Source of the DNA: a virus
Lineage: Duplodnaviria; Heunggongvirae; Uroviricota; Caudoviricetes
Length of the DNA: 11,987 nt
Reading direction: 5' to 3' (one strand)
Virus record (IMG/VR): IMGVR_UViG_2778261502_000005
Location: 1-11,987 of that record
Below are positions 3,385-9,421 of this stretch, in pieces. Numbering within the stretch: position 1 is the first letter of the stretch; each line of letters opens with the position of its first letter. The notes beneath the pieces are model-generated. The model worked only from the letters and a program-made list of their open reading frames with translations. It was not told where the DNA came from and did not search any database. A program made the position numbers and the translations under genes.

Positions 3385-4386
3385 ATGAAAGAAATAAAAT
3401 CACTAACAGGTGTTAGAGGAATAGCTGCAATTTACGTAGTTCTTTATCACTTTACAAACGCAAAAATACCTTTTCTATGGAACGGATATCTAGCAGTAGA
3501 TCTTTTTTTCGTATTAAGCGGATTTATAATGTGTATGGTATACTCTAAAAATTTCACACAAGAAATATCTGTTAGTGAATTTGGAAAATTTATTTGGCAT
3601 AGATTTTCAAGAATATATCCATTATATTTATTTGTTTTATTATTAACAATAGTTATTCAAGTAAATCAATCATCGCCACCATCAACTCAAAATCTCATAA
3701 TAAATTTTATGATGTGGCAAAATTTATTTAATAATGGAATGGTTGGTGCATCATGGTCTGTTAGCGTTGAATTAATTGCGTATTTAATATTTCCGCCTCT
3801 AATATTCTTATTAACCGATAAGAAATGGTTATGTTTCATAATAATTTACACATCAATGTCAATGTTGTTTTATATTACAACAATTGACAACCCTGGTAGT
3901 AGCGGGCCACTTGATATATATAGCGGAATCCCTTCAATAATGAGAGGTGTTTGTGGTTTCACTATAGGTTGTTGTTGCTATGTTTTATTTGATAAATACA
4001 AACACACATTTAATGTTATTGCATATACTCAAGATATTTTGGCGGCTTTAGTAATAGCGTGTTTACTAACAAAAGGAATGGATGTTGTTTTTGTTATTTT
4101 GACCGGATTATATATATCATCGCTTTATTATAGCACTGGAATAACAGGATGGTTACTATCAACAAAACCTATTCATTATTTGGGGGAGTTGTCTTTTTCA
4201 ATTTACCTTACGCACCTGATGATACAAAGGCATTTTATATTTGAAGTGAATGCAATAACTGAATGGTTAAATGTTAGTTATATAAATGATGTGTTTGTTA
4301 TGGTTATATCTACACTGATGTTTTCTATATTAACATTTCATTTAGTAGAAAAGCCAAGCAGAAATATTCTAAGAAAACTAAAATAA
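3385..4386 (+). CDS. Acyltransferase-3 family integral-membrane O-acyltransferase (Oac-like O-antigen acetylase candidate), 333 aa
   Basis: N-terminal RGIAAIYVVLYHF and DLFFVLSGF motifs characteristic of acyltransferase-3 (R-x10-H and V-x2-FF-x-S-G). About ten hydrophobic helices. Very AT-rich (about 31% GC in the first 100 nt). No SD. Convergent with the tailspike gene. Confidence 0.8.
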   Translation: MKEIKSLTGVRGIAAIYVVLYHFTNAKIPFLWNGYLAVDLFFVLSGFIMCMVYSKNFTQEISVSEFGKFIWHRFSRIYPLYLFVLLLTIVIQVNQSSPPSTQNLIINFMMWQNLFNNGMVGASWSVSVELIAYLIFPPLIFLLTDKKWLCFIIIYTSMSMLFYITTIDNPGSSGPLDIYSGIPSIMRGVCGFTIGCCCYVLFDKYKHTFNVIAYTQDILAALVIACLLTKGMDVVFVILTGLYISSLYYSTGITGWLLSTKPIHYLGELSFSIYLTHLMIQRHFIFEVNAITEWLNVSYINDVFVMVISTLMFSILTFHLVEKPSRNILRKLK

Positions 4387-4434: not shown

Positions 4435-6864
4435 TTAAGGATTACTTACCAACCCCTTCCATCCTCCACTTCCTGCGCTTGTGCATTGATAGAAGTATCC
4501 TGTGTTTTTGTCAACATATAATCCTCCTGGCTTACCATTAATAACTCCGTAAGGAGTTCCTGAACCGCTTATCAATGAAATACCATGTATAAAAGAAACA
4601 TTCTGACTATATGTTCCTGTCCCTGGAGCTCTGGCCATATCATTAATAGCACAAAGCCATGATCCAGCTGTTGATATGTTTGATATATTATCATCATCAT
4701 TTGGGACAATGGCTATCATTGGTATTGTTGCGTTTTTACCATAACCTCTAATATTACTTATTCCTCTTTGAACTCTTGAGTCTGTCAAATCTCTAATCAA
4801 TGGAACACTTACGCTATCTTCACAGATAAAGTTATTTATCGTGTAGTCATCACAGCTTGAATCAGTTTCTATATGAACCAATCCCTCGGCATCAGTATCG
4901 GAAGCTCCTGAGTATCCACCATCCCAAAAAATGCCATCTATGTTTATATATCTTGCTCCGCCGCTAATATATATATTACCAGCACCTCCGATAACCCTTA
5001 ATTCATTTATATAAATACCGTAGAACCCTAAAATTTCAACAACCCTTGCATGGTTTGATGTGTATTTTGAGTTGTTTGCGTTTTCAACCGTACAACTTGC
5101 TATAACGGAATACCTGGCATTTTGATGCCGCCCCGATGGTATTGATGCTGTATTAATGTGCTCAATTTGGAATCCATGAACACAATTTTTTGCATAACAT
5201 CTATAAAATTTAACACATCTTGCGGGCATTGTTGTTGAGTGGCCCTTCTGCTGAAATCCAGTCATTACCCCATCCGCATAACAATCCATCACGGTAACAT
5301 TATAACTTCCTTCATCAATTTCAATACCATGCTGATTCCCTGTCCATACCATATCAGGGTCATCGTTCCATACTCGGCAGCGGTTAATTACAATATCACT
5401 GCTATTATGCGTTGTAATGAGATCGTCAAGTTGACTGTTTTGAACAAAAGTGTCTTCAACAACAATGTCATAGCTACCACCAACTGCATTATTATTAATA
5501 TTCCCATCATCGAAATAATACCCAGCACAAATATCTATACCATGCTGCAAACCACGCTTACAGTAAACGTTTTTGATGGAACTGTGGCTGACAGTAGAAA
5601 ATAAAATAGTAGTCCCCTGTGTGGCATCCATCCATGTTTCTGACGGATTTCTTGCTCGATTGTTAGCATCTACACATAAGTCTTCTATGTGGATAGAAGT
5701 ATCGTAGTTTGTCCTGAATACCCTGTATTCATAAAGCTCGTTCTGAATACAGTTTTCAATTATCGGCATTGTTGGTAGTGCTAGAATAACGGTCTTAAAT
5801 TTCCCCACCCCACGCAATCTAACGTAAGATGGTACTTTCAGTGCAGAGTTAATCCCGTAAGTACCTTCAGAAAGAATAAGCTCTTTCACCGTTGCCATTT
5901 TTGCCGCTTGCAGTGCTTTGTTCAATTTATCATGACAATCCGTTACTCCATCAGGAACAATTCCGTAATAATCAGCATACACTTCATTGCAGATTCTTTT
6001 CCAACGCTTTCCACCAGGCGTCACAATTATCATTCCATCATCATCAATTGTTGTTAAATCAGTGCTATCATAATAAAAATACCCACCTCCAATACCAGAG
6101 CCTAAAGTATGCTCTAATACATATATTCTTTGCTGTAAATTTGTTGGTTCTATATTGCGTAAATTAGAAATGGAAGCACAATTGCCAATAAGTTTTAAGC
6201 CATCACTTGCTGCTAGCTGAATCATTACATCGGATGCAGATCCAGACTGTGGAAGGACCATAATAGGATTACCATTGTCATCCATCGCTACCACTTTGTT
6301 TTTACGATTCTCAGCATCAGGCAAACTTGGTATTGGCTCAGGCGTTCTAAGAGTACGACCTAGATTTGTATTAGCAAGTTTATCGACATAATTTTTAGTT
6401 GCCGCATCCTGTGGGCGCACAGGGTCTCGCAGATTTCTGATGTAGTTGTTAATAGCGTCATAATAATTCGACACAAAAGATGGCTTACGAAGAGCAAGTG
6501 AAAACCAACTTCTTACCTGCTGGATCAGCATCGTTAGCTTATCAAACGCGTCTTCGTGCACCTCAGCAAAAAACTTACCCTGGTTTCTAAGATCTGTTTC
6601 CTGAGTAACCGATAGTTCTCGCAATATGGAAATCTGATAACCATTAGCCAGTGCCTTCGACAGAATTACATTGCCACCGTTATACCCTCCCGCACCAGTG
6701 ACTGTGTAATCAGTATCAAGATCCAGCACAGTGATATTCTCGTCAAGGTCAATCACCTGCACTACTAAATCAGATTTATTGAAAACCCTAAAGGTATAAG
6801 GGAATGATGTCGTAACGCCGTTACCGGTGTATTCGTTGTGGTTAACTTCGGTTGAGACCGTCAT
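4435..6864 (-). CDS. Tailspike/tail fibre with T7-tail-fibre-like N-terminal anchor domain and C-terminal beta-helix (pectate-lyase-like) domain; probable polysaccharide depolymerase, 809 aa
   Basis: N-terminus (YTGNGVTTSFPYTF...DLVVQV...DYTVT...IRNLRDPVRPQDAATKNYVDKL) follows the conserved pattern of the T7 gp17 N-terminal domain. The remainder is rich in Gly/Asn/Ser/Thr/Ile as expected for a right-handed beta-helix. SD GGAG 7 nt upstream of the ATG. GC drops after roughly the first 170 codons. Confidence 0.8.
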   Translation of the reverse strand: MTVSTEVNHNEYTGNGVTTSFPYTFRVFNKSDLVVQVIDLDENITVLDLDTDYTVTGAGGYNGGNVILSKALANGYQISILRELSVTQETDLRNQGKFFAEVHEDAFDKLTMLIQQVRSWFSLALRKPSFVSNYYDAINNYIRNLRDPVRPQDAATKNYVDKLANTNLGRTLRTPEPIPSLPDAENRKNKVVAMDDNGNPIMVLPQSGSASDVMIQLAASDGLKLIGNCASISNLRNIEPTNLQQRIYVLEHTLGSGIGGGYFYYDSTDLTTIDDDGMIIVTPGGKRWKRICNEVYADYYGIVPDGVTDCHDKLNKALQAAKMATVKELILSEGTYGINSALKVPSYVRLRGVGKFKTVILALPTMPIIENCIQNELYEYRVFRTNYDTSIHIEDLCVDANNRARNPSETWMDATQGTTILFSTVSHSSIKNVYCKRGLQHGIDICAGYYFDDGNINNNAVGGSYDIVVEDTFVQNSQLDDLITTHNSSDIVINRCRVWNDDPDMVWTGNQHGIEIDEGSYNVTVMDCYADGVMTGFQQKGHSTTMPARCVKFYRCYAKNCVHGFQIEHINTASIPSGRHQNARYSVIASCTVENANNSKYTSNHARVVEILGFYGIYINELRVIGGAGNIYISGGARYINIDGIFWDGGYSGASDTDAEGLVHIETDSSCDDYTINNFICEDSVSVPLIRDLTDSRVQRGISNIRGYGKNATIPMIAIVPNDDDNISNISTAGSWLCAINDMARAPGTGTYSQNVSFIHGISLISGSGTPYGVINGKPGGLYVDKNTGYFYQCTSAGSGGWKGLVSNP

Positions 6865-6968
6865 GTTAAATCTCCAGATAGTCGCAGCACCCGTTGCGCC
6901 GCATATCCGATTATTCTATTACCCGAAAAACCATATATGGATAGATAGACCATGAATACAAACAGATA

Positions 6969-6983
6969 TTACCTTTCAGGTGA
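6969..6983. promoter_or_regulatory. Operator-like palindrome TTACC-N5-GGTGA upstream of the tailspike gene
   Basis: TTACCtttcaGGTGA, a 9/10 match to the TTACC-N5-GGTAA motif found around the repressor gene. Lies about 105 bp upstream of the tailspike ATG, next to a TTGCAA hexamer on the minus strand. Confidence 0.4.
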
Positions 6984-7012
6984 TTTGCAAAACGTGCTGG
7001 ATAGCAAACAAA

Positions 7013-7708
7013 TTATTTGATACTGTATAAATATACAGTTATTGCATGGAGAAGATAAGATGCAGCAGTATCACTATCCACTGGAAGACGGATTTTCCGA
7101 AGAAAGTCATCTGATGGCTGCCATTGTTCATGCATGACAAATTTGCCTAATTGCCCTGGCCCACCAGGAGGAACAAAGTTATTCATCACGGCGTTGTTTG
7201 CGCCGGGGTCATGATGCACAGAATCCCCGTTTTTTGTCCTGCTCTCCCTCTCTTGGTTAAATGACTGGTTATATGACTGGTTCTGGATCCCGTTTTTGGG
7301 ATCATTCAACATCCCGTTTTTGGGATCATTCAACATCCCGTTTTTGGGTATATTCCCGTTTTCGGGTATATTCCCGTTTTCGGGTATATTCCCGTTTTCG
7401 GGTTCATTGCCCCCCTCCCGGTTGCCTTTAATGTTCCCGTTTTTGGTTATATTAAGAGAGAAAACCCGCACTCTTTTTGTCGCTCCCTTTCTATCTCCGG
7501 TATCTGAAATAAGCCCCATTTTCATGAGCGATATAAGCCCGGCCTGCACGGTTTTTTTATTCAGGCAAGTGTCTTTAACGAGGCGTTCTATGCTGGGGTA
7601 GCAGAGGTTATATTCATCGGCTCTGTCAGCCATCGAGAGCAGTATGAGCTTTAATGATGAGCTACCTGGATCTGTCTCCCAGGCCCAATCTGTTGCATGT
7701 CTGCTCAT
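7013..7708 (-). CDS. Phage replication initiator, O-like, with N-terminal winged-HTH domain and internal repeat region, 231 aa
   Basis: N-terminal region (LKLILLSMADRADEYNLCYPSIERLVKDTCLNKKTVQAGLISLMKMGLISD) has the pattern of phage and plasmid replication-initiator HTH domains. The central part is a tandem peptide repeat (ENGNIP x3, NDPKNGML x2) encoded by iteron-like DNA repeats. Starts 13 nt after the upstream gene. Confidence 0.75.
   Translation of the reverse strand: MSRHATDWAWETDPGSSSLKLILLSMADRADEYNLCYPSIERLVKDTCLNKKTVQAGLISLMKMGLISDTGDRKGATKRVRVFSLNITKNGNIKGNREGGNEPENGNIPENGNIPENGNIPKNGMLNDPKNGMLNDPKNGIQNQSYNQSFNQERESRTKNGDSVHHDPGANNAVMNNFVPPGGPGQLGKFVMHEQWQPSDDFLRKIRLPVDSDTAASYLLHAITVYLYSIK
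7021..7040. promoter_or_regulatory. Candidate LexA (SOS) box
   Basis: TACTGTATAAATATACAGTT matches the consensus TACTGTATATATATACAGTA at 18 of 20 positions, with perfect CTGT-N8-ACAG arms and an all-A/T spacer. It lies within the last 9 codons of the O-like gene, about 157 bp upstream of the tailspike ATG. Confidence 0.55.
7289..7453. repeat. Iteron-like direct repeats (candidate replication origin) inside the O-like gene
   Basis: Seven tandem units sharing the core CCCGTTTT(T/C)GG(G/T): 24-bp units at 7289 and 7313; 18-bp units at 7337, 7355, 7373, 7391 and 7436. The core CCCGAAAACGGG is itself palindromic. A further 12-bp tandem (ATGACTGGTT-AT/CT) lies at 7261-7284. Confidence 0.65.
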
Positions 7709-8004: not shown

Positions 8005-8019
8005 TTACCTTTGAGGTAC
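8005..8019. promoter_or_regulatory. Operator-like palindrome TTACC-N5-GGTAC between the cro-side terminator and the Cys/His gene
   Basis: TTACCtttgaGGTAC, a 9/10 match to the shared motif. Confidence 0.4.
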
Positions 8020-8341: not shown

Positions 8342-8404
8342 TCACCTATAAGGTAACAAAAATCAAGGATAGTTACCCATGAGGTGCATTTACCTGTTGG
8401 GTAA
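8342..8404. promoter_or_regulatory. OR-like operator cluster of three TTACC-N5-GGTAA-type palindromes in the divergent Cro-like/repressor promoter region
   Basis: Sites at 8342-8356 (TCACCtataaGGTAA), 8373-8387 (TTACCcatgaGGTGC) and 8390-8404 (TTACCtgttgGGTAA, perfect). An AT-rich 9-6-9 palindrome ATATTTATT-N6-AATAAATAT lies at 8318-8341. Confidence 0.6.
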
Positions 8405-8459: not shown

Positions 8460-9044
8460 ATGAAAAGTATCCAGGACGTCCGCAGGCAAAATCTCAACGA
8501 CTTGATCGACCGTGAATTCAATGGTGTTCAGACGCGGATGGCAGAAAAACTTGGAACTCAGGCAAATCTGGTAAACCGCTGGGCTCTTGGCAAGAAGGTT
8601 ATCGGCGACCAGGTTGCGCGAAAAATTGAAGCTGCCGCCAATAAACCCCGTAATTGGCTTGATATCGATCGCTCGCTTTCTCAGGAAGGTTTTCAGCCTG
8701 TCGGCCCGAGTGATATAGGTCAGCTGGCTGCTCACAACCTGGAACGCTGGATGAGCGAAAGCCGCGACCTTTCAACACAGGGAAAACTTCACCGCGCATC
8801 CGGCGTCGCCCAGGTGACAATCAGCCGCCTGTTAAACAATGAGGTCAGCGTTTCCATTTCCACCCTGGAGAATGTTGCATCCGCATTCGGGCGTCACGGC
8901 TATGAATTACTGATTCACCCGCACGACCCTGCGACTATCAACTATGACCGCTCGCGCTACGCATTGTTACCCGAAACAGAGAAGGCAAAGATCGAAAGTT
9001 ACATTGAATTTGTCATCAGCCAGAACGAAAAAAACAAACAATAA
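8460..9044 (+). CDS. Phage repressor with two tandem XRE-type HTH domains and no S24 peptidase domain, 194 aa
   Basis: First HTH around QTRMAEKLGTQANLVNRWALGKK, second around LHRASGVAQVTISRLLNNEV. No Ala-Gly/Ser-Lys autocleavage module is recognisable. The nearest SD-like GAGG is about 14 nt upstream of the ATG. Flanked by operator palindromes on both sides. Confidence 0.8.
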   Translation: MKSIQDVRRQNLNDLIDREFNGVQTRMAEKLGTQANLVNRWALGKKVIGDQVARKIEAAANKPRNWLDIDRSLSQEGFQPVGPSDIGQLAAHNLERWMSESRDLSTQGKLHRASGVAQVTISRLLNNEVSVSISTLENVASAFGRHGYELLIHPHDPATINYDRSRYALLPETEKAKIESYIEFVISQNEKNKQ

Positions 9045-9197: not shown

Positions 9198-9347
9198 ATG
9201 CAGTGGAAAATCATCAACGGTTGGTACTGCGTTACTGCATGCGGATTCATGAGCTGGAAGTTCCGCACCTTACAGGAAGGTATTAAGTGGGCTTTCGTCA
9301 GCAAAGAAGCTCGCGATGTGGCCAACGATAACGAGATATGGGAGTAG
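9198..9347 (+). CDS. Small ORF of unknown function (first gene of the early operon), 49 aa
   Basis: ATG with SD GAGGT 8 nt upstream. Trp- and Cys-containing (MQWKIINGWYCVTACGF...). Absent from the ORF track because of its length. Coding status unverified. Confidence 0.4.
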   Translation: MQWKIINGWYCVTACGFMSWKFRTLQEGIKWAFVSKEARDVANDNEIWE

Positions 9348-9421
9348 GTTAGCAAATGAGTGAATTGTCAATCATCGAAATCACACCAGACATAGCGGCA
9401 TAGGATGTTGTGGGGTGGTTT

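Follow-up and report, generated by a model that had tools for sequence, protein, structure and literature searches.

Which gene does a near-consensus LexA box serve when it lies upstream of a tailspike gene and, at the same time, within the apparent last codons of a replication initiator gene? The stretch of DNA that raises this question (11,987 nt, hereafter the window) aligns for most of its length with phage phiV10 and other podophages of the epsilon15 type (genus Uetakevirus). The initial annotation had proposed that LexA controls the tailspike gene. The box is instead found 19 nt before a plus-strand ant gene, and comparison of nine phages showed no conserved leftward promoter at the box. 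We put at roughly 0.9 the probability that positions 7021-7040 are the LexA operator of P_ant, the antirepressor promoter of a temperate podophage of the epsilon15/phiV10/SPC32H type (Uetakevirus), and that ant has been cut here by a deletion. The evidence for this reading comes from the box itself, from the gene that follows it and from the rearrangement that brought an initiator gene up to it.

The LexA box and the gene that follows it

The sequence TACTGTATAAATATACAGTT at 7021-7040 departs from the 20-nt E. coli SOS consensus at two positions, which is the 18/20 match initially described, and its inverted repeat extends slightly beyond the 7-bp arms first noticed, with 8 perfect base pairs per arm (7022-7029 and 7032-7039). 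It is the only site in the window with three or fewer mismatches to the consensus, and also the only perfect CTGT-N8-ACAG; such a site with at most three mismatches arose in none of 200 dinucleotide-preserving shuffles of the window. Scoring with a palindromised LexA position weight matrix, a check that had been suggested at the outset, gave 26.3 bits for the box and 10.4 for the next site in the window, while the best of 300 shuffles reached 20.2. The matrix was trained on 25 E. coli LexA sites, which score 11.6-25.8 bits, and the box stands above every one of them. The palindrome with its AT-rich spacer, scoring at or above the level of these training sites, thus reads as a genuine and very strong LexA (SOS) box. 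Because it is identical to functional-looking copies elsewhere, this copy probably still binds LexA.

The initial annotation had taken loss of the palindrome from related elements as a sign against LexA control, and the palindrome turned out to be maintained. Among 80 IMG/VR contigs encoding Ant, 78 could be evaluated, and CTG-N10-CAG stands 19-20 nt before the ant ATG in 77 of them. These 77 loci display five spacer variants and no arm variant, the exact sequence of the window being the commonest form (54/77). The Ant proteins of these IMG/VR relatives are 98-100% identical, and the count describes conservation within E. coli phages; conservation across genera is documented by nine GenBank phages of Escherichia, Salmonella, Enterobacter and Klebsiella hosts, in which the box and a nearby Rep operator occupy the same positions. 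In the Klebsiella phages, the left arm reads ATGT instead of CTGT and the score falls at 17-18 bits, and LexA control may be weaker or absent in these relatives.

On the plus strand, an ATG at 7060 begins 19 nt after the box and is preceded by GGAG (7048-7051), the Shine-Dalgarno sequence of ant, which does not vary among relatives. The ATG opens MQQYHYPLEDGFS..., the N-terminus of phiV10 p24 and epsilon15 gp19. The p24 protein is 88% identical to the product of the SPC32H and SPC32N gene annotated as "ant: anti-repressor protein", and it matches chain E of PDB 5D50, "Anti-repressor protein" (E=3e-46). In the stretch around the operator, the box and the ribosome-binding site, the intergenic DNA between tailspike and ant of SPC32H aligns base for base with the window. 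In the window, the truncated gene, ant' (7060-7137, plus strand), keeps codons 1-13, which are homologous to phiV10 p24 and SPC32H Ant; 12 junk codons come next, and the frame ends with a stop codon at 7135-7137.

The control of ant by LexA and the antagonism between Ant and Rep in SPC32H are taken here from the literature. The SPC32H ant gene is reportedly repressed by LexA, and Rep is said to stay uncleaved during the SOS response and to be inactivated by the small Ant protein. In SPC32N, the LexA site, which overlaps the ant promoter, reportedly carries a one-base substitution that makes the phage constitutively lytic, an effect said to have been attributed to constitutive Ant synthesis. 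Comparison of the two genomes reveals two differing positions over 2646 bp, one of which is a C-to-A change in the ACAG arm of the homologous LexA box; this difference fits the LexA-site mutation reported for SPC32N. Among the relatives of the window, a lone contig (IMG/VR contig 2563366870_000004) has the left arm of the LexA box upstream of ant replaced by the unrelated CCATAAACATACAGTT, and it is a candidate for a natural LexA-blind ant promoter, like that of SPC32N.

The Bro-N protein p23 of phiV10, encoded downstream of ant (15303-15887 in locus L001), matches the Ant family phrog_450 over its C-terminal residues 148-181, and there is also a weak match between Ant and the C-terminal end of phrog_1760, a family of larger antirepressors. 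These C-terminal matches suggest a shared module.

Deletions in the prophage remnant

The apparent position of the box inside the initiator gene is the outcome of a deletion of about 26 kb, through which a shortened ant and a shortened DnaT-like gene became joined. Deletions were defined by synteny with phiV10. The larger one joins window position 7101 (phiV10 20759, in p24) to position 7093 (phiV10 34032, in p43, the DnaT-like replication initiator gene). Lost with it are the remainder of p24, the gene for the Bro-N protein, every virion and packaging gene, a P-like gene and the initiator gene's 3' end. The junction at 7093-7101, TTTTCCGAA, is a stretch of 8/9 microhomology shared by codons 12-14 of ant and the DnaT-like gene at about codon 204, and the deletion was microhomology-mediated. 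The minus-strand open reading frame at 7013-7708, a truncated DnaT-like/O-like initiator gene, is native over 7093-7708; its match to the phiV10 initiator ends at ...QWQPSDDFLRK (about codon 204). Its last 27 codons (7013-7092) read through into the opposite strand of p24, that is of ant', and of the LexA box. The overlap of the box with this reading frame, as first reported, is therefore real, but the codons concerned lie past the junction and are not native initiator codons.

An exact protein look-up located the fused reading frame in one NCBI draft assembly, GCA_002233275.1, in which the remnant is flanked by guaA on the integrase side and by yfgI/yfgH-type host genes on the lysis-gene side. 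A search of 5426 complete E. coli genomes did not recover the ant'/dnaT' junction, nor did two exact-match scans of GTDB representative genomes. E. coli genomes with both halves of the junction have them at separate sites, with some 28 kb between them in CP028578. By comparison with phiV10, a second deletion, at 9344-9392, has taken p38, recET, an AlpA/Xis-like gene, the gene for a small membrane protein and perC, and the remnant keeps its integrase gene and has lost xis.

Taken as a whole, the window reads as an 11-kb Uetakevirus prophage remnant accompanied by host DNA (1-1071). A match to phage TL-2011b had raised the possibility that 1-1071 is phage DNA, which was rejected: its two genes, the first of the window, encode a glycine-zipper lipoprotein and a DUF5384 protein and are of the yfgH/yfgI type that flanks the integration site in the host. 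The GenBank record of TL-2011b includes the same host flank, with one gene mislabelled "DNA methyltransferase". The ends of the window fall exactly at two start codons, and an Rfam scan of the whole window returned no RNA family. A gene encoding an Acyl_transf_3 protein (O-antigen acetyltransferase-like) at 3385-4386 has a GC content of 28-31%, against about 45-50% elsewhere, and is oriented opposite to its neighbours; it resembles a serotype-conversion cassette of the moron type.

Inside the DnaT-like initiator gene, three iteron arrays lie at 7254-7403 (12 bp x 2.4, 24 bp x 2.6 and 18 bp x 3.8) and translate as NG(N/M)(I/L) repeats. As in lambda O, these iterons constitute an origin embedded in the initiator gene.

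An independent deletion of structural genes is observed in E. coli AST205 (locus L011, 6111-6200), in which the tail-fibre gene is joined to a truncated P gene. Rep operator, LexA box and ant are all lost there, and a conserved block described below as the putative tail-fibre promoter is kept. Together, AST205 and the window suggest that prophage decay recurs with retention of the tail fibre, acyltransferase and lysis genes and of the immunity region.

Rep operators, promoters and competing readings

The repressor gene (8460-9044, plus strand) encodes a Rep protein identical to phiV10 p40 at 193 of 194 positions and homologous to the SPC32H repressor, as indicated by its match to PDB 5D50 chain A, "Repressor" (E=4e-42). 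A search for domains in this protein returned helix-turn-helix domains only and no S24 peptidase domain, in keeping with the initial description of a repressor devoid of a recognisable RecA-dependent autocleavage domain. The accompanying suggestion, that SOS input arrives through LexA instead of through repressor cleavage, holds for the phage family, for which it was already known. Matches to TTACCTNNNAGGTAA with at most two mismatches number seven in the window, versus 0.39 expected by chance. One of them is the palindrome copy TTACCTTTCAGGTGA at 6969-6983, as originally located, which belongs to the family TTACC-N5-GGTAA and keeps its position in 9/9 phages. The other six, at 8005, 8181, 8342, 8390, 9102 and 9164, lie around and downstream of the repressor gene, two of them (8342-8356 and 8390-8404) within the rep/cro-like intergenic region (8342-8404). 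In the epsilon15 RefSeq record, the site homologous to 6969-6983 is annotated "protein_bind: repressor", with an IHF site adjacent, and three more repressor-binding sites are annotated downstream of the repressor gene.

The copy at 6969-6983 is a conserved Rep site in the divergent control region of ant and the tail-fibre gene. It lies upstream of both candidate core promoters, and it could repress the tail-fibre promoter, possibly together with IHF and a conserved TATTACC half-site at 6918-6924, or serve as a second lock on ant, or both. A tail-fibre promoter made of TTGCAA ... TATCTG, with the operator between the two hexamers, was considered and found unsupported, the hexamers being neither good nor conserved.

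The initial annotation could place no convincing sigma70 -10/-35 pair by eye, and two scans concur. A sigma-70 consensus scan of 6865-7060 returned no promoter, and in a matrix scan of both strands all candidates scored at or below the median tile of the window, none being convincing. With no promoter confidently placed, the strand of LexA action is deduced from geometry, from conservation and from published work on SPC32H, and not from this DNA itself. We infer promoter positions, as we do the binding of LexA to this copy and the role of the operator. The best plus-strand candidate, with a weak score like all promoters near the box, spans 6998-7026 and combines a -35 TGGATA (6998-7003), a TG extension (7018-7019) and a -10 TACTGT (7021-7026). 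This -10 overlaps the left arm of the LexA box, and the key positions are invariant in nine phages. Such a promoter would place LexA over positions -10 to +7 of the rightward transcription unit.

On the minus strand, the tail-fibre or tailspike gene (4435-6864, 809 aa) diverges from ant. Its candidate promoter (6913-6941, minus strand) comprises a -35 TCCATA (6941-6936), which reads TCCATA or TTCATA across relatives, a 17-nt spacer and a -10 TAGAAT (6918-6913). The surrounding block 6913-6942, ATTCTATTACC...ACCATATATGGAT, is nearly invariant in the nine phages from four host genera and is retained in the AST205 prophage, which has independently lost operator, box and ant. It holds the operator half-site TATTACC (6918-6924) and lies about 51 bp from the full operator, with the IHF site annotated in epsilon15 falling in between. 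We infer that this block would be the most plausible tail-fibre promoter.

The competing reading closest to the initial annotation is that 7021-7040 is a bidirectional SOS operator at which LexA directly controls the minus-strand tailspike gene, with or without ant. The box does lie upstream of the tailspike on that strand, 156 nt from its ATG (6864), and the inverted ant module separates the tail-fibre gene from the late operon, such that the gene needs either its own promoter or read-through. A leftward -10-like TATATT (7035-7030) inside the box, paired with a -35-like TTATCT (7058-7053), moreover has the highest promoter score of the region (8.3). This score, however, equals the median of random 226-nt tiles of the window; the -10-like hexamer is probably just the AT-rich spacer of the box, and the -35-like hexamer lies in the spacer between the ant Shine-Dalgarno and ATG, where relatives do not keep it (AGATAA in the window, AGAAGA in SPC32H and epsilon15). 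Some 90 bp separate the strongly conserved tail-fibre promoter candidate from the box, a distance beyond the reach of occlusion by LexA bound there. The effect of the SPC32N box mutation was reportedly put down to constitutive Ant synthesis. Direct LexA control of the tailspike is thus unlikely, with only a small chance of being correct, and the same small chance applies to the broader proposal that the LexA box, with the Rep operator beside it, makes up a control region serving both directions and placing the Uetakevirus tail-fibre gene under direct LexA and/or Rep control. Were the bidirectional reading true, SOS induction in the remnant would still turn on either the retained tailspike or the synthesis of RNA antisense to the truncated initiator gene, iterons included, and the orphaned site would have a domesticated function instead of none.

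Two further explanations bear on whether the box and its present surroundings are what they seem. The palindrome might be a chance AT-rich inverted repeat, or the site of another protein, with no LexA function: the promoter predictions near it are weak. Against this stand the shuffles (0/200), the score above all training sites, the invariance of CTG-N10-CAG around a variable spacer in 77 of 78 loci and the position of the natural SPC32N C-to-A variant in the CAG arm, all of which make a fortuitous or foreign site extremely improbable. The ant'/dnaT' junction, for its part, might be an assembly chimera, the real genome having an intact ant downstream of the box. Its source is a draft assembly, and it is missing from the complete E. 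coli and GTDB representative genomes scanned. However, the 135-kb contig that contains the junction midway along its length shows the proper host flanks to either side, and two samples are listed for it; the repeats usually responsible for misassembly are much longer than a 9-bp microhomology; and that such decay occurs is shown by the second, independent deletion in the same element and by an analogous deletion, with a different junction, in the complete AST205 genome. A chimeric origin is accordingly very improbable.

The LexA-Ant-Rep circuit and known switches

In the preferred reading, that of a LexA operator before ant, the circuit of an intact phage would operate as follows. LexA bound to the box would block rightward (plus-strand) transcription of ant. 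Upon DNA damage, activated RecA would promote the self-cleavage of LexA, and once LexA is gone P_ant would fire and the 86-aa Ant protein would be made. Ant would then bind the non-cleavable Rep and break up its DNA-binding tetramer, the TTACC-N5-GGTAA operators would be vacated, and the lytic promoters would be released and lytic genes expressed. The window still holds a Rep without an S24 domain, Rep operators at both rep/cro and ant/tailspike, and the LexA box before ant. What it no longer holds is an intact ant of about 86 aa, 13 native codons being left, and the switch is disabled here because ant is cut after codon 13. The remnant also has no helicase-loader gene, xis, recET or virion genes. 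Its LexA-gated promoter would now yield only the 25-codon junk reading frame and an RNA antisense to the truncated initiator gene. Most likely, the box at 7021-7040 is a regulatory fossil in a cryptic prophage between yfgI and guaA.

These results are mainly a correction, in that what looked like LexA control of a structural gene is a known antirepressor switch, masked by a deletion and assigned to the wrong strand. They allow phiV10 p24, epsilon15 gp19 and their many E. coli prophage homologues (in about 10% of complete E. coli genomes) to be annotated as LexA-controlled Ant, and the prophage of the window as non-inducible and defective. The locus also provides an example of regulatory sites that outlive their genes in decaying prophages.

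The LexA-Ant-Rep switch itself is already known, and its target is ant, not the tailspike; the control by LexA that the initial annotation regarded as unusual corresponds to the published system of SPC32H (Kim & Ryu 2013, J Virol 87:11775; Kim et al. 2016, PNAS; PDB 5D50/5D4Z), a phage of the same genus, Uetakevirus. Passages of PMC7380047 restate the general finding of the work on LexA and ant in SPC32H, and passages of PMC9638917 and PMC9986798 restate the Rep-tetramer/Ant mechanism (Kim et al. 2016 PNAS). SPC32H and the window share the order leftward tailspike, Rep operator, LexA box and rightward ant, as well as an equal distance from box to ant ATG, a homologous Rep (E=4e-42) and homologous first 13 codons of Ant. 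They differ in that ant is deleted after codon 13 in the window, where no Ant can be made, in their hosts (Escherichia for the window, Salmonella for SPC32H) and in the spacer of the box, which reads ATAAATAT in the window and ATGTTTAT in SPC32H. The phiV10/epsilon15 region of p24/gp19 is another close relative, positions 6185-7101 of the window being 82-99% identical to phiV10 and E. coli prophages. In the records of these two phages, p24 and gp19 are called "hypothetical protein" and no LexA site is annotated; both phages are intact, whereas the window is a remnant.

Beyond the genus, host LexA represses the promoter of a small antirepressor that acts on a non-cleavable repressor in coliphage 186 (Tum) and in the Gifsy and Fels phages (Shearwin 1998; Lemire et al. 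2011, PMC3121763). The logic of these systems is shared with the window-type switch, yet their antirepressor proteins are unrelated and their morphotypes and gene contexts differ. The Ant of SPC32H has reportedly been described as structurally distinct. In the temperate podophage P22, the antirepressor module of immI (mnt-arc-ant) lies directly beside the tailspike gene 9. P22 Ant is large and is controlled by Mnt and Arc, not by LexA, and the P22 c2 repressor is RecA-cleavable. The window thus resembles P22 in the placement of an antirepressor module adjoining a tailspike gene, and differs from it in that P22 Ant is unrelated to Ant of the SPC32H type.
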